Shown: in pieces, positions 6,835-17,269 of the stretch
Layout of the letters: each line of letters begins with the position of its first letter
Position numbering within the stretch: position 1 is the first letter of the stretch
From: an uncultured Candidatus Saccharibacteria bacterium
Lineage (GTDB): Bacteria > Patescibacteriota > Minisyncoccia > Minisyncoccales > JANBVM01
Assembly (NCBI GenBank): GCA_964493485.1
Contig: CAZBMQ010000005.1
Span: 3,832-67,831, forward strand
DNA: 64,000 nucleotides
Direction: 5' to 3'
The notes under the pieces: generated by a model
Databases searched by the model: none
What the model saw: only the letters and a program-made list of their open reading frames with translations
Told to the model about the DNA's origin: nothing
Position numbers and translations under genes: made by a program

Positions 6835-7311
6835 TTATTTAATTGTTCTCCATTCGATATCCTTTTCCTCTCCTGCAAACTCCAGCCAATTTCCTCTCTC
6901 ATCAATCACAAACCATTTTCTCTTTGTCTCAGACCATACCATGGGATTTCCTTGATAATAGGGTTTTTTTACAATTTCTTTTGGTTTTAACCTATCTAAT
7001 TCCAACCATTTTTTAAAAACAGTCTCAATGGCATAATCCAAATTCCTTGATTTTGCCCATTCAGCTACCTTATCAATAGCCGCTTTTGCTTTTTTAACAG
7101 AACCTGCCAACTCTAATAATTGTTTTGCAGGTCTAGTGAATCTTGAATAAATAATCTTTTTTTTCTTTGCATTATCTTTTATCTCTTCAAGGCTTAATCC
7201 TTTAGTGTAAAAATAATGATTCACAATCTGTTGGATTGCTGTCTCTTCTTTTATTTTCTTTTTCTGCTTCGCCGACTGACGAATTTTTTTCTTTTTTTTA
7301 TTTTTTGGCAT
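6835..7311 (-). CDS. Hypothetical protein with lysine-rich N-terminus
   Basis: Clean 158-aa ORF, co-directional with and 12 nt downstream of the PadR gene. I recognised no family. Confidence 0.5.
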   Translation of the reverse strand: MPKNKKKKKIRQSAKQKKKIKEETAIQQIVNHYFYTKGLSLEEIKDNAKKKKIIYSRFTRPAKQLLELAGSVKKAKAAIDKVAEWAKSRNLDYAIETVFKKWLELDRLKPKEIVKKPYYQGNPMVWSETKRKWFVIDERGNWLEFAGEEKDIEWRTIK

Positions 7312-7323
7312 AAGTTTACCTTA

Positions 7324-7635
7324 TTATTGTAATTTATTCAAGACCTCCTTTAAAAATTTTTTTGCTAAAACCAATTCTTTTTTGCCTTTTTCTGTAATAT
7401 GGTAAATTCTCCTTCGTTCCTTCATTTTGCTTTTGACAAAGCTTTTGCTTTCTAATCTATAAAGCACTCTATAGGGGGTAATTCTGCCAGGTTTAAAACC
7501 AAATTTTTTTTCAATAAGAGAAGGAATTTCCCAAGCATAAATCTCTCTCTCTTTTAACAAAGAAAGGATGTAAACCCATAGATTCTCTTTGGTGTTTGAT
7601 TTTCTTAAACGCTCTAATGGAAGCATATTTTTCAA
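7324..7635 (-). CDS. PadR-family winged-helix transcriptional regulator (paralog 1)
   Basis: LWVYILSLL.E...YAWEI...I...F.F.PG.ITPYRVLYRLE..SFV is a PadR-like pattern. 103 aa. Confidence 0.7.
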   Translation of the reverse strand: MKNMLPLERLRKSNTKENLWVYILSLLKEREIYAWEIPSLIEKKFGFKPGRITPYRVLYRLESKSFVKSKMKERRRIYHITEKGKKELVLAKKFLKEVLNKLQ

Positions 7636-7691: not shown

Positions 7692-8795
7692 ATGAGACAG
7701 GAAATAAAAATTGCTATTGCAGGTTTAGGAAACTGCGCTTCGTCTTTAATACAGGGAATTTTTTATTATAAAGATGTAAAAACAGACGATGAATTAATTC
7801 CAGGGTTAATGCACAATATTATAGAAAAATATAAACCTGCTGATATAAAAATTGTGGCTGCCTTTGATATTGATAAAAGAAAAGTAGGGAAGGATGTTTC
7901 CAAAGCAATATTTTCAAAACCTAACTGTACAAGAACCTTCTATTCTAAAATACCAAATTTAAACACAAAAGTAAAAATGGGACCTGTATTAGATGGAGTG
8001 CCAAAACATATGAAAGAATATCCAGAAGAAAAAAGGTTTATGATAGCTAAAGAAAAACCAGTAGATGTAATAGATGAATTAAAAAAATCAAAAGCTGAAA
8101 TTTTGATAAATTATTGTCCTGTTGGTTCTCAAAAAGCAAGCGAATTTTATGCCAAAGCAGCATTAAAAGCAAATTGCGCTTTTATCAATTGTATGCCTGT
8201 ATTTATCGTGTCTAATAAAAAATGGGCTAAAAGATTTAAACAAAAAAATATTCCTTGTATAGGAGATGATATAAAATCTCAGATAGGAGCCACAATTGTT
8301 CACAGAGTTCTCTCTCATCTTTTCTCAGAAAGGGGAGTAAAAATAGATAAATCCTATCAATTAAATGTTGGAGGCAATACAGATTTTTTGAATATGCTTT
8401 CCAGAAAAAGACTAAAGTCAAAAAAAATATCTAAAACAGAAAGTGTGGAATCTCAATTATCAAAAAGATTAAGCTATGACAATTTGCATATAGGACCTTC
8501 AGATTATGTTCCATGGCTAAAGGACAACAAAATCTGTTTCATTCGAATTGAAGGCAGAAAATTCGGCAATGTACCTGTAGAGCTTGAATTAAGATTATCA
8601 GTAGAAGATTCGCCAAACTCAGCAGGATGTGTAATAGACGCTATTAGGTTAATCAAAATCGCTTTGGATAGAAAAATAGGAGGACCTTTGATTTCAGCTT
8701 CAGCTTATTTTATGAAACACCCTCCTCAACAGTTTACAGATGAAAAAGCTCGTGAAATGGTCGAAGAATTTATTTTAGGGAAAAGAGAAAAATAA
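7692..8795 (+). CDS. ino1: myo-Inositol-1-phosphate synthase (short archaeal/bacterial type)
   Basis: N-terminal IKIAIAGLGNCASSLIQGIFYY. The 367-aa size and overall pattern fit the MIPS family. Confidence 0.8.
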   Translation: MRQEIKIAIAGLGNCASSLIQGIFYYKDVKTDDELIPGLMHNIIEKYKPADIKIVAAFDIDKRKVGKDVSKAIFSKPNCTRTFYSKIPNLNTKVKMGPVLDGVPKHMKEYPEEKRFMIAKEKPVDVIDELKKSKAEILINYCPVGSQKASEFYAKAALKANCAFINCMPVFIVSNKKWAKRFKQKNIPCIGDDIKSQIGATIVHRVLSHLFSERGVKIDKSYQLNVGGNTDFLNMLSRKRLKSKKISKTESVESQLSKRLSYDNLHIGPSDYVPWLKDNKICFIRIEGRKFGNVPVELELRLSVEDSPNSAGCVIDAIRLIKIALDRKIGGPLISASAYFMKHPPQQFTDEKAREMVEEFILGKREK

Positions 8796-8895: not shown

Positions 8896-9195
8896 ATGGA
8901 GCCTTTTGAAAGATTCAAAAAATCAAATAGAGAAAACAATCTTTGGATTTATATTCTTTCTCTTGGAAAAGAAAGAGAAATTCCCAATGATGAAATTCAA
9001 AGATTAATCTTTGAAAGATTTGATTTCTTGCCAGGAAAACTATTAACAAAAAGAGTTATATATAGATTGAAAAATCAAGGATATATCAAAAAAGAAAAAT
9101 TTAAAGGAAAAACAGCTTTTATTACTACTAAAAAAGGACTGAAAGAATTAGAAAAAATGAAAAATTTTACTCAAGATTTACTGAAAAGATTATAG
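8896..9195 (+). CDS. PadR-family transcriptional regulator (paralog 2)
   Basis: NLWIYILSLGKEREI...RVIYRLKNQGYI aligns with 7324-7635. 99 aa. Confidence 0.65.
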   Translation: MEPFERFKKSNRENNLWIYILSLGKEREIPNDEIQRLIFERFDFLPGKLLTKRVIYRLKNQGYIKKEKFKGKTAFITTKKGLKELEKMKNFTQDLLKRL

Positions 9196-9202
9196 TATTG
9201 AA

Positions 9203-9247
9203 CAAAAAAGCAGCTTTTTGAGAGGTCTAGGCTGCTTTTTTGTTTTT
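9203..9247. terminator. Bidirectional hairpin terminator between convergent genes
   Basis: AAAAAGCAGC (9205-9214) pairs with GCTGCTTTTT (9231-9240). The stem is flanked by an A-run and a T-run. Confidence 0.6.
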
Positions 9248-9256
9248 TGATGTCGA

Positions 9257-9799
9257 CTATTCTTTTTGATGTTTTTCCACTGTAAACCGATATATTACAA
9301 TTTTTTCTCTTTTAGGATTAATTCCTCCTTTTTGGCAGGCAATTGAAATTTGTTTTTCTATTGTGTCTACTCCTTGTAAATCAGGAAGTAAAAGCCCTGC
9401 CTTTTGGGTTTTATGTGGTTCTTCTAAAGAAAATGTCCTGACAATAATTCCATATTTTTTAGGATCCAACTCCTCTAAATTTTTGATTTGTTCTGGTCGG
9501 CTTAAGATGGAAACAGTATAAGAAAGATAGGGGAGTTCTTCTCTTTGCACAGGAAGAAACCTATAGTCTTCAGTGGCAGCTGCAATTGCATTAGAAATAA
9601 TCTCCTTTGCAATATTCTCTTTAGTGGGCAAATATGTACCAATACACCCTCTTAATTTTCCTTCCTTTTCAATTGTTACAAACACACCTGCTTTTCTTTC
9701 AAAAAATTCTCTTGGAAGATTCGCAGGAGGAAAAATGACTATATTTTTTTCTATCCAGTTTTCAACTGCTGATTTGGCAAGTGAAACATAAAGGTCCAT
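9257..9799 (-). CDS. AMMECR1-domain protein (AmmeMemoRadiSam system protein A type)
   Basis: GVFVTIEKEGKLRGCIGTYLP is the hallmark AMMECR1 motif. 180 aa. Confidence 0.85.
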   Translation of the reverse strand: MDLYVSLAKSAVENWIEKNIVIFPPANLPREFFERKAGVFVTIEKEGKLRGCIGTYLPTKENIAKEIISNAIAAATEDYRFLPVQREELPYLSYTVSILSRPEQIKNLEELDPKKYGIIVRTFSLEEPHKTQKAGLLLPDLQGVDTIEKQISIACQKGGINPKREKIVIYRFTVEKHQKE

Positions 9800-9816
9800 A
9801 CTTTATTATATTTATG

Positions 9817-10497
9817 TTAAATAAAAGGTTTTGTAAGTTCTGGAAAGAAGTAGAGACAGATTGCCAACACTAAAAAAGAAGAAACAGGGATATATATGTT
9901 GTCATCATCAAATCTTTCGAAAAATGTTGCGACAAAAGCAGCAACAAGACCTGCAATGCCCATTTTTAGTCCGCCTATTACAGCGCAGGTTAAAAACATT
10001 CCAAGAGAACCCTCCCAAGCCTTACTTTGTTTTTTATATCTGAAATTTCTAATAATACCTGTGACACCATCACCAAAAGCCATAAAAAGAGCGGGAATAA
10101 CTCCCAGCCAAAATGATTTATCTAAAAACCAGCCAATTAAAATAGACAAACTCCACATTATGCAGAAGTTTACCTCATGACGATTTTCCTTTACTTGATA
10201 CCAATTTTGAAGTTTCTTTATTTTATGAAAAAAATATGTATAAAAAGCAAATCCGAGACCCAAGATAAAAGGAATATAAGCTTCTTTAAAAAGAAATGGA
10301 AGAAATAAGGTGGTTATGCCTGCTGCAAAGATATGAATGACCTTTCTGCCAAAATATGTAGCAGAATTTGGAGGAAAACCTCTTTTTATAGCGAAATTAT
10401 ACACCCATTTGGATAGCCAGTTTACAATAAAAAAACTCCAAAGGGAAAATGGTATCACGATTATAAAATCCTGTAAAAAAATATTGTTCGTACTCAT
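9817..10497 (-). CDS. Polyprenol (dolichol/phytol) kinase-family integral membrane protein
   Basis: Multi-TM protein. FGDGVTGIIRNFRYKK..KAWEGSLGMF resembles the CTP-dependent polyprenol kinase C-terminal motif (GD..A...G......K..EGS.G). Confidence 0.5.
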   Translation of the reverse strand: MSTNNIFLQDFIIVIPFSLWSFFIVNWLSKWVYNFAIKRGFPPNSATYFGRKVIHIFAAGITTLFLPFLFKEAYIPFILGLGFAFYTYFFHKIKKLQNWYQVKENRHEVNFCIMWSLSILIGWFLDKSFWLGVIPALFMAFGDGVTGIIRNFRYKKQSKAWEGSLGMFLTCAVIGGLKMGIAGLVAAFVATFFERFDDDNIYIPVSSFLVLAICLYFFPELTKPFI

Positions 10498-10542
10498 AGT
10501 TTTATCATCAATTTTAATTTTTTAATAATCTTCTCGACTTTA

Positions 10543-11217
10543 TTATACTTTTTTTCTTGCTTTAGCAATCAATGTAGACCCAAGTGAAGGGAACATTTTT
10601 CCTAAAAATTCTGAATATGGTGGCTGGTTATATTCTCCCGGATTAAAACAGACGAAATCAGATATTATCTTTTCTATTTTAAATCCAGCATTTTTTAAAA
10701 GTATCTCGAAAGTGCTTTTTGTAAAACACCTGACATGCTCTGTGTATCTCTGATAAGTCTCACTGGGAGCAATCCTAAGAGGATATAAGCCAAATAAAAT
10801 CCTGATTCTGTTTGGAAGAGAAACAATGTTGTCTGCCGTGATAATTATTGGCTTGTTTCTCTTTAAAATACGATGACACTCTCTTAAAAAGTGCTCTGTA
10901 TTAAAAATGTGCTCCAAAACTCTTAAACACCAAATAGCATCAAAAGTCCCGTCTTCAAATGGCATTTCTTTCTCCAAGTCTCCTTTAAAAGTTTTAACAC
11001 CTTTTTTCTCAGCTTCCTTTAGAGCTTCTTCGTTCTCATCTATTCCCCAAACTTCATATCCCATTTTTACTAAAGACTCTGAAACAATACCGTTTCCGCA
11101 TCCGGCATCTAAAATCTTAAGTGCCCGCCCTTCTATCTCCAACATCTCTATCATTGGCTTTATAATAGTCTGATTCCTTTTAAATCTTGGAGAAAGCCAT
11201 TTATAATCTTTAAACAT
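10543..11217 (-). CDS. Class I SAM-dependent methyltransferase
   Basis: SAM-binding motif I ILDAGCGNGIVS and post-I D/E (GIDENE). 224 aa. Confidence 0.75.
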   Translation of the reverse strand: MFKDYKWLSPRFKRNQTIIKPMIEMLEIEGRALKILDAGCGNGIVSESLVKMGYEVWGIDENEEALKEAEKKGVKTFKGDLEKEMPFEDGTFDAIWCLRVLEHIFNTEHFLRECHRILKRNKPIIITADNIVSLPNRIRILFGLYPLRIAPSETYQRYTEHVRCFTKSTFEILLKNAGFKIEKIISDFVCFNPGEYNQPPYSEFLGKMFPSLGSTLIAKARKKV

Positions 11218-11230
11218 TTTTAGTTTTTTT

Positions 11231-11536
11231 CTATTTTTCTAATGCTTTTTTTATTCTCTCAACTTCTCTTTCAATAATTTCCCCTTCATAATCTCCAGCA
11301 TGGGCTGTAGCACCTTTATAAACAGGCCTTCTTTGATCCAAATGCAAATTGAATATAAACTCATTGTTCTCAGAGTCTATCTTTAAGAAAAGATGAAATC
11401 TTGGATATCCTCCTAATTCCAGAGGACGCACAAAAATATATTCTTTTTTCTCTTCGTCTTCTTTCAAATAACGATAACCAATCTTTCTAGTTAAAGTAGT
11501 GATGCTTTCTCTTATATTTTTAAGTTTAAATCTCAT
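11231..11536 (-). CDS. Hypothetical 101-aa protein
   Basis: Clean ORF whose start overlaps the upstream phosphatase gene by 4 nt. I recognised no family. Confidence 0.5.
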   Translation of the reverse strand: MRFKLKNIRESITTLTRKIGYRYLKEDEEKKEYIFVRPLELGGYPRFHLFLKIDSENNEFIFNLHLDQRRPVYKGATAHAGDYEGEIIEREVERIKKALEK

Positions 11537-12294
11537 AGAATCTTAATCTCTAAATCTCTCGCGCTTTTTATCTCTTTTGATAAGTCTGCTATAGCAATGG
11601 TTCTCTTGCGTGTGTAGGCAAAAGAAGTAAAAATAGTCAAACATTTATCATCAAATAAAAATTGACGGGTATCAGATTGATGGGAGCGTATCAAAATATC
11701 TTTATCAAAACGCTTCATAATCTTAAAAAAATATTCCTTTCCAAATTGAGGTCGTCCGCTAAACCTGTCAATTCCTAAATATTCCCCCTTCCTATCAAAG
11801 AAATCTCCCCATGTAATCTCCTGCCAATGTTCGCTACCAAGTTTAATATCATTAATCTCTTTCAAACTTTCTACATCAGGCGGTACCCCATGTAATGCTA
11901 TTATATTTTTTACTACAAACACTAATGGAAAATTCTCTACAATTGAAGTATATATCTTATATTCTTCTTTGCTTAACCCTTCCCAGAACTCAGCAGGAGA
12001 AAACCTTAAAATATGATATCCTTCATGATTCCCTTGAAGCAAATAGATCTGTTTTGGGTTTTTAAGTTTTGCCTCTAATAAAAAATCCAAATTTTCTTTA
12101 GAAAGAGGCCCTCTATCTACATAATCTCCGAGAAAAACAATAATATTTCCTGGTTTTAAATAATCTTTTAGAACTTTTTCTGAAGCCTCGAGATCTCCAT
12201 GAGTGTCTCCTGCAAAGATAATCTTTTTCCCTTTTTTAATTTTAATTAATTTTGATTCTTTTTTTAGAACTTCTTTTATTTTTTTAAAATTCAT
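11533..12294 (-). CDS. Metallophosphoesterase (PPP-family Ser/Thr phosphatase / ApaH-like)
   Basis: The GDTHGD, GDYVDRG and GNHE motifs occur in the canonical order. Confidence 0.8.
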   Translation of the reverse strand: MNFKKIKEVLKKESKLIKIKKGKKIIFAGDTHGDLEASEKVLKDYLKPGNIIVFLGDYVDRGPLSKENLDFLLEAKLKNPKQIYLLQGNHEGYHILRFSPAEFWEGLSKEEYKIYTSIVENFPLVFVVKNIIALHGVPPDVESLKEINDIKLGSEHWQEITWGDFFDRKGEYLGIDRFSGRPQFGKEYFFKIMKRFDKDILIRSHQSDTRQFLFDDKCLTIFTSFAYTRKRTIAIADLSKEIKSARDLEIKIL

Positions 12295-12307
12295 AAAATT
12301 TGTCTGC

Positions 12308-12922
12308 TCATAATTTGAAATCTGCCACTAAGTAACCTACACCAAATGGTCCTTCGTAAGAAAGTATTTCTGCTTTCCAATCAATTCCAGAACCTTCTAA
12401 GATTCCTAATAAAAAACAAAAAGAACGAAGACCACATTCACCAGCCTCAGGAAAATAATCATCGAGTTTCAAGAATTTCTCAATGTTCTTGTTTTTCAAA
12501 TATTTAATCAATGCCTTGTCAAATTCCGGACCATCAGGAGTAAACCCATAAGGTCCATCTTCCTTCAAACAATGAGAAAGGTCTCCAGAAGCAATAACAG
12601 CGTATTTTTTATTGTCTTCAAGGGTATTATAGAATTTTTTTCCTTCCTCAAAATAAAATTCAGGGGTTTTCCCACCCAAAAGATATCTTCTTATTTCTCC
12701 CTTGAAGTCTTTTGCTAAAAAGAAAAGCGGGACATTAAAACCCCAGTCAGGATGGGGTGAAGAAATCAAAATAACATCTGGGGTTTTTTCTTTTAGTTTT
12801 TTGCCCAATGTTTCAAGATTCTGAATTGTGTTTTTTACCAAAAGCCTATCTTTTTCAGAGCCAACTGAAGGCAAGATTATTGGGGGGTGAGGAGATATAG
12901 CTGCAAAAACAATTTTTTTCAT
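12308..12922 (-). CDS. Class III extradiol dioxygenase subunit-B-like (LigB/Memo superfamily) protein
   Basis: N-terminal AAISPHPPIILP, then SSPHPDW and GDLSH. It lies immediately downstream of the AmmeMemoRadiSam-type radical SAM gene. Confidence 0.55.
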   Translation of the reverse strand: MKKIVFAAISPHPPIILPSVGSEKDRLLVKNTIQNLETLGKKLKEKTPDVILISSPHPDWGFNVPLFFLAKDFKGEIRRYLLGGKTPEFYFEEGKKFYNTLEDNKKYAVIASGDLSHCLKEDGPYGFTPDGPEFDKALIKYLKNKNIEKFLKLDDYFPEAGECGLRSFCFLLGILEGSGIDWKAEILSYEGPFGVGYLVADFKL

Positions 12923-12924
12923 AA

Positions 12925-13941
12925 TTAATGTAAGATTATATTTAAATCTTCATCACATTCTGAACATTTTCCATTATTGTCATACCTATGAATCATATAA
13001 CCTGTTCTATCAATGGCTACTGCCTGACACTTTGGACAGACTGTATCTTCTGAAGGAAGTCCAGGAATGTTGCCTGTATAAACATATTTTAATCCTGCCT
13101 CTTTTCCTATTTCATAAGCCCTTCTTAGTGTTTCAAGGGGGGTGTCTGGAAGATGTTGAAGCTTCCAAGAGATAGCCCCAGAAAATTGTGTGACATGCCA
13201 GGGTGTTTCAGAGCCTAACTTATCTTTTATAAATTGAGCAATCTTTTTTAGCATCTTTTCAGAATCACTTAAAGTAGGAATAACCAGGGTGGTAATCTCC
13301 ACCCATACTCCAGATTTTTTCATCAATTCTGCTGTTTTTAACACCGGCTCTAATCTGGCACCACAATTTTTCTTATAAAACCTATCAGAAAAGCTTTTAA
13401 TATCAATATTATTGGCATCTAAATAGGGAATAATTAATTTTGCTGATTTTTCTGACATAAAACCATTACTCACCCAAGCATTCTTTATTCCCTGTTTCTT
13501 TGCCAATTTCATAGTATCTAATGCATATTCCAAAAATATCGTAGGTTCAGTATAGGTATAAGAAATACTGGGAAGATTGCCCTCAATAGCTAAATTAACA
13601 ATCTCTTCTGGGCTTAATTCTTTGCCTGGAATTTCCTCTTTATCTTTAAAACCTTGAGAAATATCATAGTTTTGGCAATTCAAACATCTAAAATTGCATC
13701 CAACTGTAGCAATAGAAAGAGAAAGGGTGCCGGGTAAAAAATGGAAGAATGGTTTTTTTTCAATTGGGTCAATATTCACTGCAATAGCTTTTTCATAATT
13801 TAAGGTATATAACTTTCCATCAATATTTTCTCTCACACCACATATGCCTCTTTTTCCCGGTTTTATAAGACAGAAGTGAGCACAATTTTCACACTTCACT
13901 TCTTTATTTTTTAGTTTTTGATATAAATAAGCTTCTTTCAT
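12925..13941 (-). CDS. AmmeMemoRadiSam-system-type radical SAM enzyme (PflA-like activase fold)
   Basis: N-terminal Cys cluster C.NC..C...PG.RG.CGVR, and radical SAM motif GCNFRCLNCQN (CX3CX2C). It also has a C-terminal CPKC...C.EC. 338 aa. Confidence 0.8.
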   Translation of the reverse strand: MKEAYLYQKLKNKEVKCENCAHFCLIKPGKRGICGVRENIDGKLYTLNYEKAIAVNIDPIEKKPFFHFLPGTLSLSIATVGCNFRCLNCQNYDISQGFKDKEEIPGKELSPEEIVNLAIEGNLPSISYTYTEPTIFLEYALDTMKLAKKQGIKNAWVSNGFMSEKSAKLIIPYLDANNIDIKSFSDRFYKKNCGARLEPVLKTAELMKKSGVWVEITTLVIPTLSDSEKMLKKIAQFIKDKLGSETPWHVTQFSGAISWKLQHLPDTPLETLRRAYEIGKEAGLKYVYTGNIPGLPSEDTVCPKCQAVAIDRTGYMIHRYDNNGKCSECDEDLNIILH

Positions 13942-13952
13942 TTTTATAATAA

Positions 13953-15119
13953 TTAATTACCTCTTATTTTTTTAACAGTATTTTCCCTCCACTCACGATA
14001 TTGAACAGCACTGAGTTCCTTTCCGTTTTTTATCTGAGAATCTAATCCACTCTTAAATCCATCTCCTGCTGCCTGTCCGATAACAGCTAAAGAACCTGAC
14101 CCGCTTCCATAACCCAGCATACAAACATTCTTGCCTCTGCTGATTTCTTCTAATACAGACATCAAAGAAATGAAAATAGATACATTATAGCAATTGCCAA
14201 TATATGAATTATATTTCAGTCCAGGTTTAATCTTTTTTATGAAAAACTCCTGAAACTCTGGAAGTTCTCTTACTTCATCTAAGAGTTTTTTAAATTTCTG
14301 AAATAACTTTGGATAAGAAACACATTGAGAGAGCAAATCTAAAAACTCACTTTCTTTATATTTTTCATACCGCCATAAAGCAGCAGAGGTCCACACTACC
14401 ATCTTGGGAAAAGGAGTATGCATCACAAAATAATCGATCTTATCTATAAGCACATCGAATGAATTTTTAACTTTATAATCTAAAAATGCCTGAATAATGC
14501 ATTTAATATAGGCTGGTTTGGTTAATGGACCATCAACCTCTGGAAATGGAGCTGTTTTAATCGGAATTTTAAAATCATCAATGTCTTCAACATATTGTCC
14601 ATAGTTTTGAAAATCTAAATCTAAAAGCTTGGGATTCCTTTCTATTCTTAATGCAACCACCCCAGCTCCTTGAGTTACCTCAGCCTTATTATCATTGTAA
14701 AGAGAACGGTCTGCCACTATTACTATACAAGGCTTATTGTGAGACACGCTATATTCTGAAGCCAAAAGCAGGGCTTGTATGCCAGAAAGGCAAGCAAATT
14801 TCAACTGAAAGGGGACAATATTAAGTTTTAAATTATTAATAGCCTTTATTGCTAAACTTGCTTTAGACAAATCATAGTCTGATTCTGTAGCAAATATAAA
14901 TCTATCCACATCTCTATAATTTATCTTTTTTAAGGCCTGGACTATAAGTTCTTCTAAAGTCACATTATATGGAATTCGAGCCTGTACCAAACCCAGGCCT
15001 CCATTTACATATTCTAACGGCAATTCTCTTTCCTGAGCTATCTTTTCTACTCCAATAAAATATTCTGGAATCACACCTGCTATTTCACTTATTCCGACTT
15101 TTTGAGTTTTTATGTTCAT
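13953..15119 (-). CDS. HMG-CoA synthase-like thiolase-fold condensing enzyme
   Basis: FATESDYDLSKA (compare the ATES..D.SK of HMGS) and the catalytic-Cys context FACLSGIQALL. 388 aa. Confidence 0.6.
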   Translation of the reverse strand: MNIKTQKVGISEIAGVIPEYFIGVEKIAQERELPLEYVNGGLGLVQARIPYNVTLEELIVQALKKINYRDVDRFIFATESDYDLSKASLAIKAINNLKLNIVPFQLKFACLSGIQALLLASEYSVSHNKPCIVIVADRSLYNDNKAEVTQGAGVVALRIERNPKLLDLDFQNYGQYVEDIDDFKIPIKTAPFPEVDGPLTKPAYIKCIIQAFLDYKVKNSFDVLIDKIDYFVMHTPFPKMVVWTSAALWRYEKYKESEFLDLLSQCVSYPKLFQKFKKLLDEVRELPEFQEFFIKKIKPGLKYNSYIGNCYNVSIFISLMSVLEEISRGKNVCMLGYGSGSGSLAVIGQAAGDGFKSGLDSQIKNGKELSAVQYREWRENTVKKIRGN

Positions 15120-15235
15120 TTTTAAAAATCAGATACAAATTCCAAAAATTTAGGCGATACTTTTATATTAAAGCATTTTGTCAAAATCATCAATTTTTAC
15201 TGAAATTTAGAATGTGCTATAGTGAGAATAGCTAT

Positions 15236-15802
15236 ATGAATCATAGGATTTTTATTGCTATTAATCTGCCAGAAAAAATCAAAAACAAACTTGTCGGCTA
15301 TCAAGAAAAATGGCCTGATTTACCGATAAGATGGACGAAAAAAGAAAATCTCCATATAACCCTGGTATTTATAGGTCCTGCAAGGGATGAAGAAATCCCT
15401 GAGATCTGCAAAAAAACAGAAGAAGTGGCATCGAAGAATGGATCCTTTGAGGTTGTATTGAATAAGATTTGCTATGGACCTCCAAAGAAAATGCCTCCTC
15501 GAATGGTATGGGCCATAGGAGAAAAATCAGAAAGTTTGACAAAACTACAGAAAGAATTAGAAACTGTCTTGATGTCTTCTCTTAAAAACTCATTTAAACC
15601 TGAAACCAGACCGTATTCTCCCCACATTACTTTAGGGAGAATTAGAAAATGGGAATTTAAACAAATCAACCCAGAAGAAAGACCACAAGTAGATGAAGAC
15701 ATTTTTTTAAGCTTTGAAGTAAATTCAATAGAGGTAATGGAAAGCAGATTAAAAAGATCAGGAGCAGAATACACAATTCTCGAATTAATCCCACTCCATT
15801 AA
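15236..15802 (+). CDS. thpR: RNA 2',3'-cyclic phosphodiesterase (2H / LigT family)
   Basis: Two HxT motifs (HITLVF and HITLGR). The start is set at ATG 15236 (MNHRIFIAINLP). Confidence 0.8.
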   Translation: MNHRIFIAINLPEKIKNKLVGYQEKWPDLPIRWTKKENLHITLVFIGPARDEEIPEICKKTEEVASKNGSFEVVLNKICYGPPKKMPPRMVWAIGEKSESLTKLQKELETVLMSSLKNSFKPETRPYSPHITLGRIRKWEFKQINPEERPQVDEDIFLSFEVNSIEVMESRLKRSGAEYTILELIPLH

Positions 15803-15856
15803 AACTCAAATTATAAATTTCAATTGAAATTTGGATTTTGGAATTTGGATTTCATT

Positions 15857-17269
15857 ATGAGAGTTCATTTCATCGGTATTGGCGGGATAGGAGTGTCAGC
15901 ATTGGCAAGATATTACTTATCAAAAGGGCATAAAATCACTGGCTCTGATTTAGCTTCTTCAGAAATCACAAAAGCTCTTAAAAAGAAAGGGGTAAAGATT
16001 TTCATTGGAAAACACAGACCAGAACATATTTCAAAAAATATTGACCTAGTAATCTATAGTCCGGCTATCACAAAAAACAATCCAGAGCTTAAAAAAGTAT
16101 ACAATCTTAAAAAAACCAACAAAAAACCGAAGGTTTTAAGTTATCCTCAGGTTTTGGGGGAACTAACGAAAAGTCATTTTACTATTGCAGTCTGCGGAAG
16201 TCATGGGAAAAGTACGGTAGCTGCAATGATAGGACTTCTGTTAACAAAAGCTGGATTAGATCCTACTGTGATTGTAGGCACAAAATTAAAAGAGTTTGGA
16301 GATTCTAACTGCAGGGTAGGGAATTCAAAATATCTGGTTATCGAAGCTGACGAACATTTTGGTTCGTTTTTAAATTACTGGCCAAAAATTATTGTCTTGG
16401 TGACTCTTGAAAAAGACCATCTCGATTATTACAAAAACTTCAATAATATCTTGAAAACATTTAAAAAATTCATCTTACATTTACCAAAAGATGGTGTCTT
16501 GGTAGCTAATAAAGATGATGAAAATATAAAAAAATTATTAAAAGAACAGAAATCATTAAAACAAATAAAAAAGTCTAAATCAAGGCAAATAAAAAAATCT
16601 AAATCAACCTCAATCATAGATAACGCATTTTTCACGATCGTTAAAAATGCAAGATTTTATTCTTTGAAAGATAAAGAAGCGAAAAAGATAAAAAAGATGT
16701 TAAAAGTCCCAGGTGAATTCAATGTTTCAAATGCTCTAGCAGCTTTGGCAGTAGCTCGAATATTAGAAATACCAGATAAAATCTCTTTTAAATCCTTGTC
16801 AGAATACAAATGCTCTTGGAGGCGGTTTGAAATCACTAAAATTTTAAAACCTGTACCTTATACATTGATAGACGATTATGGACACCATTCCACTCAGGTA
16901 AAAGTAACATTAAAAGCTGCCAAAGAAAAATATCCTAAAAAAGAAATCTGGTGTGTATATCAACCTCATCAATACCAAAGAACCTATTATTTATTTAACG
17001 ACTTTGTCAAAGCTTTTAAAAAAGCACCTGTAGACAAGGTAATTATTACTGATATCTACAGTGTAGCCGGCAGAGAGAAAAAAGAAATAACAAAGAAAGT
17101 AAGCAGCAAAAAATTAGTAAAGGCTGTAAATAAACCATCTGTAATTTATATACCTCAAAAGAAACTAGAAGAATTTTTAAAGAAAAACTTAAAACCAAAA
17201 CAGGTATTAATAATTATGGGAGCAGGGGATATATATAATTTAAGCCTTAAATTAAAAGGTCAACATTAA
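15857..17269 (+). CDS. murC: UDP-N-acetylmuramate--L-alanine ligase
   Basis: HFIGIGGIGVSALARYYL, P-loop GSHGKST, and DDYGHHST. The start is set at ATG 15857. It contains an in-frame 24-nt tandem duplication (16562-16609). Confidence 0.85.
   Translation: MRVHFIGIGGIGVSALARYYLSKGHKITGSDLASSEITKALKKKGVKIFIGKHRPEHISKNIDLVIYSPAITKNNPELKKVYNLKKTNKKPKVLSYPQVLGELTKSHFTIAVCGSHGKSTVAAMIGLLLTKAGLDPTVIVGTKLKEFGDSNCRVGNSKYLVIEADEHFGSFLNYWPKIIVLVTLEKDHLDYYKNFNNILKTFKKFILHLPKDGVLVANKDDENIKKLLKEQKSLKQIKKSKSRQIKKSKSTSIIDNAFFTIVKNARFYSLKDKEAKKIKKMLKVPGEFNVSNALAALAVARILEIPDKISFKSLSEYKCSWRRFEITKILKPVPYTLIDDYGHHSTQVKVTLKAAKEKYPKKEIWCVYQPHQYQRTYYLFNDFVKAFKKAPVDKVIITDIYSVAGREKKEITKKVSSKKLVKAVNKPSVIYIPQKKLEEFLKKNLKPKQVLIIMGAGDIYNLSLKLKGQH

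Follow-up and report, generated by a model that had tools for sequence, protein, structure and literature searches.

A probable mosaic of lineage-specific genes around the AmmeMemoRadiSam trio of a Nealsonbacteria-like Patescibacterium

Introduction

The 64-kb stretch of contig CAZBMQ010000005.1 analyzed here (the window) carries eight tightly packed minus-strand genes at positions 9257-15119. Three of them form the trio of the AmmeMemoRadiSam system, namely a radical S-adenosylmethionine (SAM) enzyme (rSAM), a LigB/Memo-superfamily protein in the position of protein B, and the AMMECR1-family protein A. The other five encode a 3-hydroxy-3-methylglutaryl-CoA synthase (HMGCS), a PPP-family phosphatase (PPP), a 101-residue protein that we call u101, a methyltransferase, and a polytopic membrane protein. 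This arrangement raises two questions: do the eight genes make up a single pathway, and on what kind of molecule might the trio act? A reading made from the letters of the window (the sequence-only reading) had proposed that a polyprenyl or lipid-linked substrate of the trio is phosphorylated, dephosphorylated, and methylated in one pathway.

Conservation of Memo (human MEMO1) and AMMECR1 extends from bacteria to humans, and both are linked to disease; a published account describes their biochemical function as unknown (PMC11081632). NCBIfam grades its models of the prokaryotic trio as "hypothetical equivalog" only, and our literature search found no experimental work on the prokaryotic trio. 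Gene neighborhoods are the main available clue to it. For Patescibacteria, close operon-like packing of genes says little about whether they share a function. Our analysis indicates, with moderate confidence, that the region is a tightly packed gene string of a Nealsonbacteria-like Patescibacterium in which a trio core sits in a gene-flux hotspot, making it a mosaic and not one conserved pathway. The locus is a lineage-specific variant of a known, functionally uncharacterized system and brings no new mechanism.

Results

Locus layout and the AmmeMemoRadiSam trio

An open reading frame (ORF) check placed eight minus-strand ORFs, all co-directional, between 9257 and 15119, with intergenic gaps of 11, 2, 13, -4, 13, 45, and 17 nt. 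The same eight products were called independently in Logan SRR7051285 and ENA ERZ27248139, and NCBI GCA_029935855.1 contains a fragment of the same eight-gene string in which the gene calls agree. The coordinates and these independent calls bear out the sequence-only reading, which had described eight co-directional minus-strand genes with gaps from -4 to 45 nt. The nearest relatives of the window are Parcubacteria/Nealsonbacteria metagenome-assembled genomes. GC content is uniform across the eight genes (31-35%; window ∼31%), and this homogeneity gives no sign of a foreign insert. The string ends at a bidirectional intrinsic-terminator-like hairpin between convergent units (9203..9247, both strands), which is flanked in the sequence by an A-run and a T-run. 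As had been predicted, it folds on both strands with a U-run after each hairpin; the folding energy is -17.0 kcal/mol (z = -5.4) for the minus strand and -21.7 kcal/mol (z = -3.8) for the plus strand. Other terminator-like sites in the region occur at chance frequency (5 found vs 4.9 expected), and an Rfam scan of the region matched no riboswitch or other known RNA. The eight genes are probably co-transcribed.

The three trio genes form a cluster that takes up no more than 4.7 kb of the minus strand and reads rSAM, B, A. The 338-aa radical SAM enzyme (12925..13941, minus strand) matched TIGR04337 at 328 bits (cut-off 220) and Pfam Radical_SAM at 82 bits, and its translation carries the CxxxCxxC cluster motif as CNFRCLNC. 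Protein A (180 aa; 9257..9799, minus strand) matched TIGR04335 at 125.5 bits (cut-off 99) and Pfam AMMECR1 at 150.5 bits. Like the known AmmeMemoRadiSam system, the window thus holds a radical SAM enzyme and an AMMECR1 protein that exceed the curated cut-offs, with a LigB/Memo-superfamily protein between them on the same strand. It departs from that system in two respects: B is a 204-aa variant failing the protein B model, TIGR04336, and the trio is split by four passengers with HMGCS in front, whereas the trios of many relatives are contiguous.

The 204-aa protein in the B position (12308..12922, minus strand) matched Pfam LigB at 94.7 bits, so that its earlier assignment to the LigB/Memo group stands as far as LigB goes. 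Its Memo score of 20.7 bits, however, lies under the cut-off of 27, and it gave no match to TIGR04336 at E ≤ 0.01; a close ortholog in locus L002 of our survey also scores below that model's cut-off (20.2 vs 26 bits). Proteins of 265 aa in the same position, 41-47% identical to the window protein, pass TIGR04336 at 29-49 bits against the same cut-off of 26. When the window protein was aligned with the B proteins of its relatives (alignment A5), ∼70 residues were found to be missing as a clean, precise deletion. The residues H12, H57, H117, E162, and C163 are invariant across the short and long forms; a His that the long form has within DHG is replaced by Trp in the short form (DWG), and the other metal ligands are kept. 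Given the 41-47% identity to proteins that pass TIGR04336 and the invariant His/His/His/Glu-Cys residues, the alignment identifies the 204-aa protein as a divergent deletion variant and not an unrelated protein. The short form is carried by one sub-clade, and short and long forms occur with the same accessory genes. The best solved relative of the 204-aa protein is archaeal TK2203 (5HEE; E = 2.9e-6).

Comparative context in Patescibacteria

We surveyed 80 genome loci retrieved via the radical SAM protein and ∼15 more retrieved via homologs of the membrane protein or HMGCS (given here as L numbers), ∼50 of which are Patescibacteria loci. The Patescibacteria loci share a backbone in the order MurC(-) LigT(-) / ... 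/ PadR, HHH_8, EF-P. Within the ∼35 loci with a complete interval, the order rSAM-B-A is invariant, and between or before the trio members stand 0-8 other genes, which mostly belong to singleton clusters. We refer to this position as the slot. Bare rSAM-B-A trios are common (L002, L010, L011, L040). In other loci the slot holds glutamine synthetase (GlnA), TruB, AIR-synthase-like proteins, extra radical SAM enzymes, a TIM barrel, PD40 propellers, glycosyltransferases, MBOAT/DUF459, methyltransferases, HD, CYTH, Metallophos_2, GDPD, or DUF3850. Since genes as unrelated as those for glutamine synthetase, TruB, and the AIR-synthase-like protein are found there, the slot accepts unrelated genes.

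The five extra genes of the window, those for PPP, u101, the membrane protein, the methyltransferase, and HMGCS, recur in or beside the trio in L004, L005, L009, L015, L017, L082/83, L084, and L090-92. Two loci have near-identical sets, HMGCS-rSAM-B-PPP-u101-membrane protein-A in L084 and rSAM-B-PPP-membrane protein-methyltransferase-A in L082. The interleaved genes are therefore conserved next to the trio in several related genomes, in line with the sequence-only reading. Each extra gene is dispensable individually in close relatives, and on the rSAM tree the accessory genes show a scattered distribution that implies their gain or loss on repeated occasions. Taken together with the bare trios and the unrelated genes that share the slot, this dispensability speaks against the proposal of one phosphorylating, dephosphorylating, and methylating pathway. 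The trio would instead be the conserved core between the MurC-LigT flank and the PadR/HHH_8/EF-P flank, and the passengers would be optional lineage-specific additions, not obligatory steps. These may be divided into separable units, namely HMGCS, PPP with B, u101, the membrane protein with a myo-inositol-phosphate synthase (IPS), and the generic methyltransferase.

Several slots have contents of their own. In the richest (L015:11642-16101), B and A are separated by u101, a methyltransferase, an HD protein, two more radical SAM enzymes, and a xylose-isomerase-like TIM barrel. A more distant clade of Patescibacteria (L031:11034-13932, L036-L038) has a secreted-looking protein of ∼465 aa between rSAM and B and a 227-aa protein with five transmembrane segments (5-TM) between B and A; neither has a family match. 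We considered the 227-aa 5-TM protein, which stands upstream of AMMECR1 in L031 and L036-38, as a hidden relative of the window membrane protein and rejected it as unrelated. An MBOAT and DUF459 (SGNH-like) pair lies downstream of the radical SAM gene in L024:11592-14001 and L090:4094-6470, and L001:7451-8636 has MBOAT only before the contig ends. Such a pair is typical of cell-envelope polymer O-acylation systems.

Passenger genes

Pfam and NCBIfam profile checks agree with the earlier family calls for the AmmeMemoRadiSam radical SAM enzyme, PPP, the methyltransferase, and AMMECR1, and in part with that for the HMGCS-like enzyme. The 388-aa HMGCS, the condensing enzyme of the mevalonate pathway (13953..15119, minus strand), matched Pfam HMG_CoA_synt_C at 61.7 bits (cut-off 25.1); it scored 18 bits against HMG_CoA_synt_N (cut-off 25) and 154.5 bits against the equivalog TIGR01835, far under the cut-off of 360. 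Its best solved relative is MvaS of S. aureus (1TVZ; E = 1.8e-31), and alignment of the two shows that the catalytic Glu (ATES), Cys (FAC), and His (HTPFPKM) as well as the Asn motif (GNCYNVS) are conserved. L096 has a 51%-identical homolog within a complete mevalonate operon, and in L097 a homolog adjoins a thiolase. The window HMGCS shares its family with the L096 copy, but where a bacterial mevalonate operon comprises thiolase, HMGCS, HMG-CoA reductase, GHMP kinases, and a decarboxylase, the window HMGCS stands alone beside LigT, and we found no other mevalonate, thiolase, or prenyl-synthase gene within the 64-kb window. The same arrangement is seen in two loci that lack the trio, in the order LigT / HMGCS-u101-HHH_8-EFP in L094 and LigT / HMGCS-u101-AIP-synthase-like-IPS in L095, where AIP denotes archaetidylinositol phosphate. 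HMGCS occurs together with the trio only in the window, L005, and L084. Because HMGCS and u101 hold the same LigT-adjacent position in the trio-less L094 and L095, they are backbone residents and not trio accessories. By its sequence and position, HMGCS reads as the ordinary mevalonate enzyme of the lineage, belonging to the conserved backbone and not specific to the trio, and synteny explains its place at the operon head.

The L096 operon (L096:1-19167) consists of a thiolase, a polyprenyl synthase, HMGCS, HMG-CoA reductase, two GHMP kinases, a decarboxylase, and a geranylgeranyl reductase (GGR). It adjoins FabA-like, acyltransferase, biotin carboxylase, and squalene-hopene-cyclase-like genes, an unexpectedly rich set of lipid biosynthesis for Patescibacteria.

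The 101-aa u101 (11231..11536, minus strand) belongs to a family of ∼40 clusters, all from Patescibacteria or unnamed, and matched no Pfam or NCBIfam model. Invariant across the family are R17, Y21, P45-R46-F47-H48, H65, D67, Y73, H79, E91, and R94. An AlphaFold2 model has an alpha+beta fold with a predicted local distance difference test score (pLDDT) of 82.7, and a fold search with it returned only weak matches (BamC-N, KA1, helix-grip). In the trio-less loci u101 directly follows HMGCS (L094:10172-10471; L095:10155-10463, here with a 4-nt overlap), which shows that it is a clade-specific small protein existing also without the trio and suggests that its link may be with HMGCS and not with the trio. 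We also considered u101 as a substrate peptide and rejected the idea, as its invariant His, Asp, and Arg residues look catalytic or metal-binding.

PPP (253 aa; 11533..12294, minus strand; Pfam Metallophos 77.4 bits) is a PP1/PP2A-like metallophosphoesterase. Aligned to PP1, it has the motifs GDTHGD, GDYVDRG, and GNHEG, so that GDxHG, GDxVDRG, and GNHE are all present, and its best solved relatives are the catalytic subunits of PP1, PP5, and PP2A (E = 2e-16). In every one of the seven loci that have PPP, its gene lies immediately 3′ of B, with a 4-nt overlap in four of them, and it is found with both the short and the long form of B. This adjacency ties PPP to protein B. The methyltransferase (224 aa; 10543..11217, minus strand; Methyltransf_11 78.8 bits) is a generic class I SAM-dependent enzyme that scored 74 bits against the UbiG model, below the cut-off of 103. 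Its homologs in the slot are confined to L015 and L082/83.

The last passenger is the 226-aa polytopic membrane protein (9817..10497, minus strand), which the sequence-only reading had taken for a polyprenol-kinase-like protein and which some sources label "dolichol kinase." The label is carried by some of its 229 homologs in both NCBI and JGI, in a family of at least 302 representative clusters at 50% identity, and is confirmed by neither profile nor fold. The window protein had no match in Pfam or NCBIfam even at E ≤ 10, and none of 50 diverse family members scanned with Pfam matched PF01148 or another relevant family. Two profile searches against PDB sequences gave no match. The AlphaFold2 model is all-helical with a pLDDT of 94.7, and Foldseek found no match for it in the PDB (best E = 0.14). 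An hhalign comparison with E. coli CdsA returned a probability of 0.5%. The kinase assignment thus finds its basis in source labels only. The family has the motifs RKxxH, GDGxTG, K-x-x-E-G-S, and DDN throughout, which we take to resemble motifs of the PF01148 kinase superfamily. The protein is polytopic like the CTP-dependent PF01148 enzymes (dolichol, polyprenol, and phytol kinases and CdsA), and some homologs are so labeled, but it lacks any profile, PDB sequence, or PDB fold match to them.

The membrane protein is absent from the first 80 loci, those retrieved with the rSAM protein. Of its six independent close homologs (56-61% identical), five are found upstream of AMMECR1 at a distance of one or two genes, and in each of these cases IPS is convergent downstream; the copy in L093 is not at the trio position. 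A metagenome scan with the protein recovered five distant loci only. Archaeal homologs (L085-L089) are 45-47% identical, unusually high for a membrane-protein pair from a bacterium and an archaeon, and their contexts are uninformative (thiolase, methylmalonyl-CoA mutase, Rpb2-type RNA polymerase).

IPS (367 aa; 7692..8795, plus strand) is convergent to the window operon. It matched Pfam Inos-1-P_synth at 126.9 bits (cut-off 27) and TIGR03450 at 458.6 bits, below the mycothiol-specific equivalog cut-off of 638. The earlier placement of IPS just beyond the terminator was right in that IPS lies nearby and convergent, but the adjoining gene is a 99-aa winged-helix (PadR-like) ORF (8896..9195, plus strand; weak HTH_45 match), the last gene of the convergent IPS unit, and IPS is one further. 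All six distinct loci with the membrane protein in the trio also have IPS. This co-occurrence is observed directly, and from it we infer a joint role in lipid head groups. In L040 and L095, IPS is paired with an AIP-synthase-like gene, a pairing which suggests that IPS and its partner form a separate head-group module. The window differs from such a cassette of IPS and a CDP-alcohol inositol-phosphate synthase, since no CDP-alcohol transferase was found within its 64 kb and the membrane protein co-occurs with IPS instead.

The CDP-alcohol transferase beside IPS (L095:10478-11080; L040:3075-3689) reached 137.8 bits (cut-off 180) with the archaetidylinositol phosphate synthase model and 73 bits with the bacterial PIP synthase model. 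Such scores hint at archaeal-type inositol lipid chemistry in the bacteria of L095 and L040.

Loci outside Patescibacteria

In the 36 non-Patescibacteria loci, none of the window's extra genes was found within 10 kb of the rSAM gene. No lipid family is among the two genes on either side of rSAM outside Patescibacteria, although at the third position, beyond this span, direct probes detected polyprenyl synthases. An Fe-S carrier ATPase of ParA/NUBPL type occurs within two genes of rSAM in 8 of ∼34 loci (including L048, L050-L052, L055, and L061) and is directly downstream in L051. This ATPase is plausibly a dedicated cluster-delivery partner of the radical SAM enzyme.

Discussion

Within the mosaic that we favor, two themes recur around the trio and bear on its substrate. 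The first is isoprenoid metabolism. A gene of the GGR family lies between rSAM and B in L041 (TIGR02032 171 bits vs 158.8), and a GGR-like gene is inside the trio in L018. Nine loci from two phyla have a polyprenyl synthase (PF00348) at a distance of 1.4-4.1 kb from rSAM; they are L048, L050, L051, L052, and L055 of the Thermodesulfobacteriota/Deltaproteobacteria and L012, L013, L018, and L024 of the Patescibacteria; four of the nine were called by Pfam PF00348 (208-255 bits) and five by homology to an L096 probe. GDPD also belongs here: L027-28 have it in the slot, and in L026, whose contig stops short of AMMECR1, it comes immediately after B. The second theme is phosphoester chemistry. In L040 a PHP enzyme follows AMMECR1. 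A phosphoesterase (PPP, Metallophos_2, HD, GDPD, or CYTH) is present in 15 of 35 complete intervals, but a Fisher test on such counts is biased by slot-derived queries and related loci and is not valid as a probability; a less biased count, made from precomputed Pfam tables, assigns phosphoesterases to 4 of 19 inserted vs 3 of 80 flanking genes. Both themes are suggestive and are limited by the relatedness of the loci and by post hoc selection.

An isoprenoid context is not without precedent. Burroughs and co-workers in 2019 reportedly linked Memo clade contexts to the modification of nucleotide bases and aliphatic isoprenoids, and others cite their work on the PCAD-Memo superfamily and on "Memo-Ammecr1 systems." With its neighbors HMGCS, GGR, and polyprenyl synthase, the present set of loci would fit the isoprenoid context of the Memo-AMMECR1-radical SAM neighborhoods. 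An isoprenoid link for the Memo-AMMECR1-radical SAM set has reportedly been published already.

On these grounds we tentatively propose that the trio modifies a phosphorylated isoprenoid-type lipid, for example an isoprenoid glycerophospholipid or a polyprenyl phosphate. Hydrogen abstraction from an unactivated carbon of the lipid would fall to the radical SAM enzyme, the Memo-like His/His/His/Cys metal center and AMMECR1 would act as its partners, and the associated phosphoesterase could process the phosphate of the lipid. There is modest support for the broader view that isoprenoid lipids are involved in the action of the trio. What carries the earlier proposal of a polyprenyl or lipid-linked substrate is the independent GGR and polyprenyl synthase neighbors; the HMGCS at the head of the operon, on which that proposal had drawn, does not, being an ordinary mevalonate enzyme by synteny.

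A number of observations weigh against this reading of the locus. The phosphatase next to B looks by its motifs like a PP1/PP2A-type protein phosphatase and not like a known type of lipid phosphatase. The polyprenyl synthases are convergent to the trio genes or several genes off, and they were found post hoc with a panel of ∼17 probes. Since most of the loci share flanks, recurrence may reflect inheritance and not selection for linkage, and their relatedness inflates all of our counts. Outside Patescibacteria, A and B are mostly not adjacent to or are unlinked from rSAM in the 36 loci, and the gene seen most often beside rSAM encodes the ParA/NUBPL Fe-S carrier and no lipid enzyme. A reported linkage of archaeal AMMECR1 to a PIN/Zn-ribbon protein points to RNA (PMC6393860). 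Lastly, co-transcription of the eight genes is read from gene spacing and the terminator alone.

A more specific form of the lipid proposal is doubtful: in the Nealsonbacteria-like clade, the trio would have acquired as partners a PP1-like phosphatase, the clade-specific His-rich 101-aa protein, an archaeal-type "dolichol-kinase-like" membrane protein, and, in sister lineages, GGR, the substrate being a phosphorylated isoprenoid membrane lipid or polyprenyl-phosphate carrier. If this were true, compact operons of this kind would offer a substrate hypothesis that is concrete and testable, the first for the Memo and AMMECR1 families, whose conservation reaches as far as humans. The leads that can be used in any case are the pairing of B with the phosphatase, the GGR inside the trio, the short form of B, and two unmodeled families, and both the isoprenoid enzymes and the B-joined phosphoesterase could guide substrate screens.

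The same neighbors allow other explanations. The trio might act on a phosphorylated substrate that is not a lipid (RNA, a nucleotide, or a protein), with the phosphoesterases as true partners and the lipid genes as coincidental residents of the hotspot, which we judge unlikely. Such a substrate would suit the PP1/PP2A-type PPP placed directly after B in 7/7 loci, the several phosphoesterase folds that recur in the slot (HD, CYTH, Metallophos_2) with PHP nearby, and the LigT 2H phosphoesterase as a conserved divergent neighbor. TruB and DUF3850 in the slot, the reported PIN/Zn-ribbon linkage of archaeal AMMECR1 (PMC6393860), and, outside Patescibacteria, KH-domain, SPOUT, and MazG genes beside rSAM with no lipid genes within two genes would point the same way, as would the binding of a phosphopeptide by Memo that is reported by Qiu et al. 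2008. A nucleotide-base context, which Burroughs and co-workers reportedly also put forward, would agree with such a substrate. The neighbors outside Patescibacteria were, however, each found only twice, and a purely non-lipid substrate leaves unexplained the GGR gene between rSAM and B in L041 and the GGR-like gene in L018, the polyprenyl synthases near the trio in two phyla, and the membrane protein, GDPD, and MBOAT in the slot.

It is less probable still that all eight genes serve one dedicated pathway, in which a mevalonate-derived polyprenyl or lipid-linked molecule would receive a phosphate from the membrane kinase, lose it to PPP, undergo methylation, and be modified by the trio. A tight co-directional string with a single terminator, the near-identical gene sets of L084 and L082, the GGR and polyprenyl synthase associations elsewhere, and the unconfirmed "dolichol kinase" label on some homologs of the membrane protein would all be expected of such a pathway. 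Yet every extra gene is dispensable in close relatives, where bare trios are common, unrelated genes occupy the same slot, and no extras occur near rSAM outside the clade. HMGCS, a housekeeping mevalonate enzyme, and u101 hold their position without the trio, and no other mevalonate or prenyl gene lies in the window. The identity of the kinase finds no support in Pfam, NCBIfam, PDB sequences, PDB folds, or the CdsA comparison, and PPP resembles protein phosphatases. The weakest alternative, that the neighbors say nothing of the trio and reflect co-directional packing of unrelated genes with random insertions into a hotspot, accounts for housekeeping GlnA and TruB in the slot, for the singleton status of most slot genes, and for flanks shared among non-independent loci, but is very improbable given that non-homologous members of two themes recur in different sub-lineages and a second phylum and that PPP follows B in 7/7 loci with a 4-nt overlap in four.

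Flanking genes

The backbone that holds the mosaic in place is also seen in the window. Upstream of the string and divergent from it lie a LigT-type 2H phosphoesterase (15212..15802, plus strand; Pfam LigT_PEase) and MurC (15824..17269, plus strand; Pfam Mur_ligase), both assigned from precomputed tables. Downstream lie two ORFs: one is PadR-like (7324..7635, minus strand; Pfam PadR on its homologs), and the other, of 158 aa (6835..7311, minus strand), is related to HHH_8 proteins, with HHH_8 assigned on its homologs. MurC and LigT homologs flank the rSAM gene in most Patescibacteria loci, and a homolog of the 158-aa ORF follows AMMECR1 in most. The pairing of IPS with the winged-helix ORF is conserved in L005 and L040. 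In the window, IPS is bracketed by two paralogous PadR-like ORFs of ∼100 aa (7324-7635, minus strand, and 8896-9195, plus strand), an arrangement that is also kept in L005 and L040.

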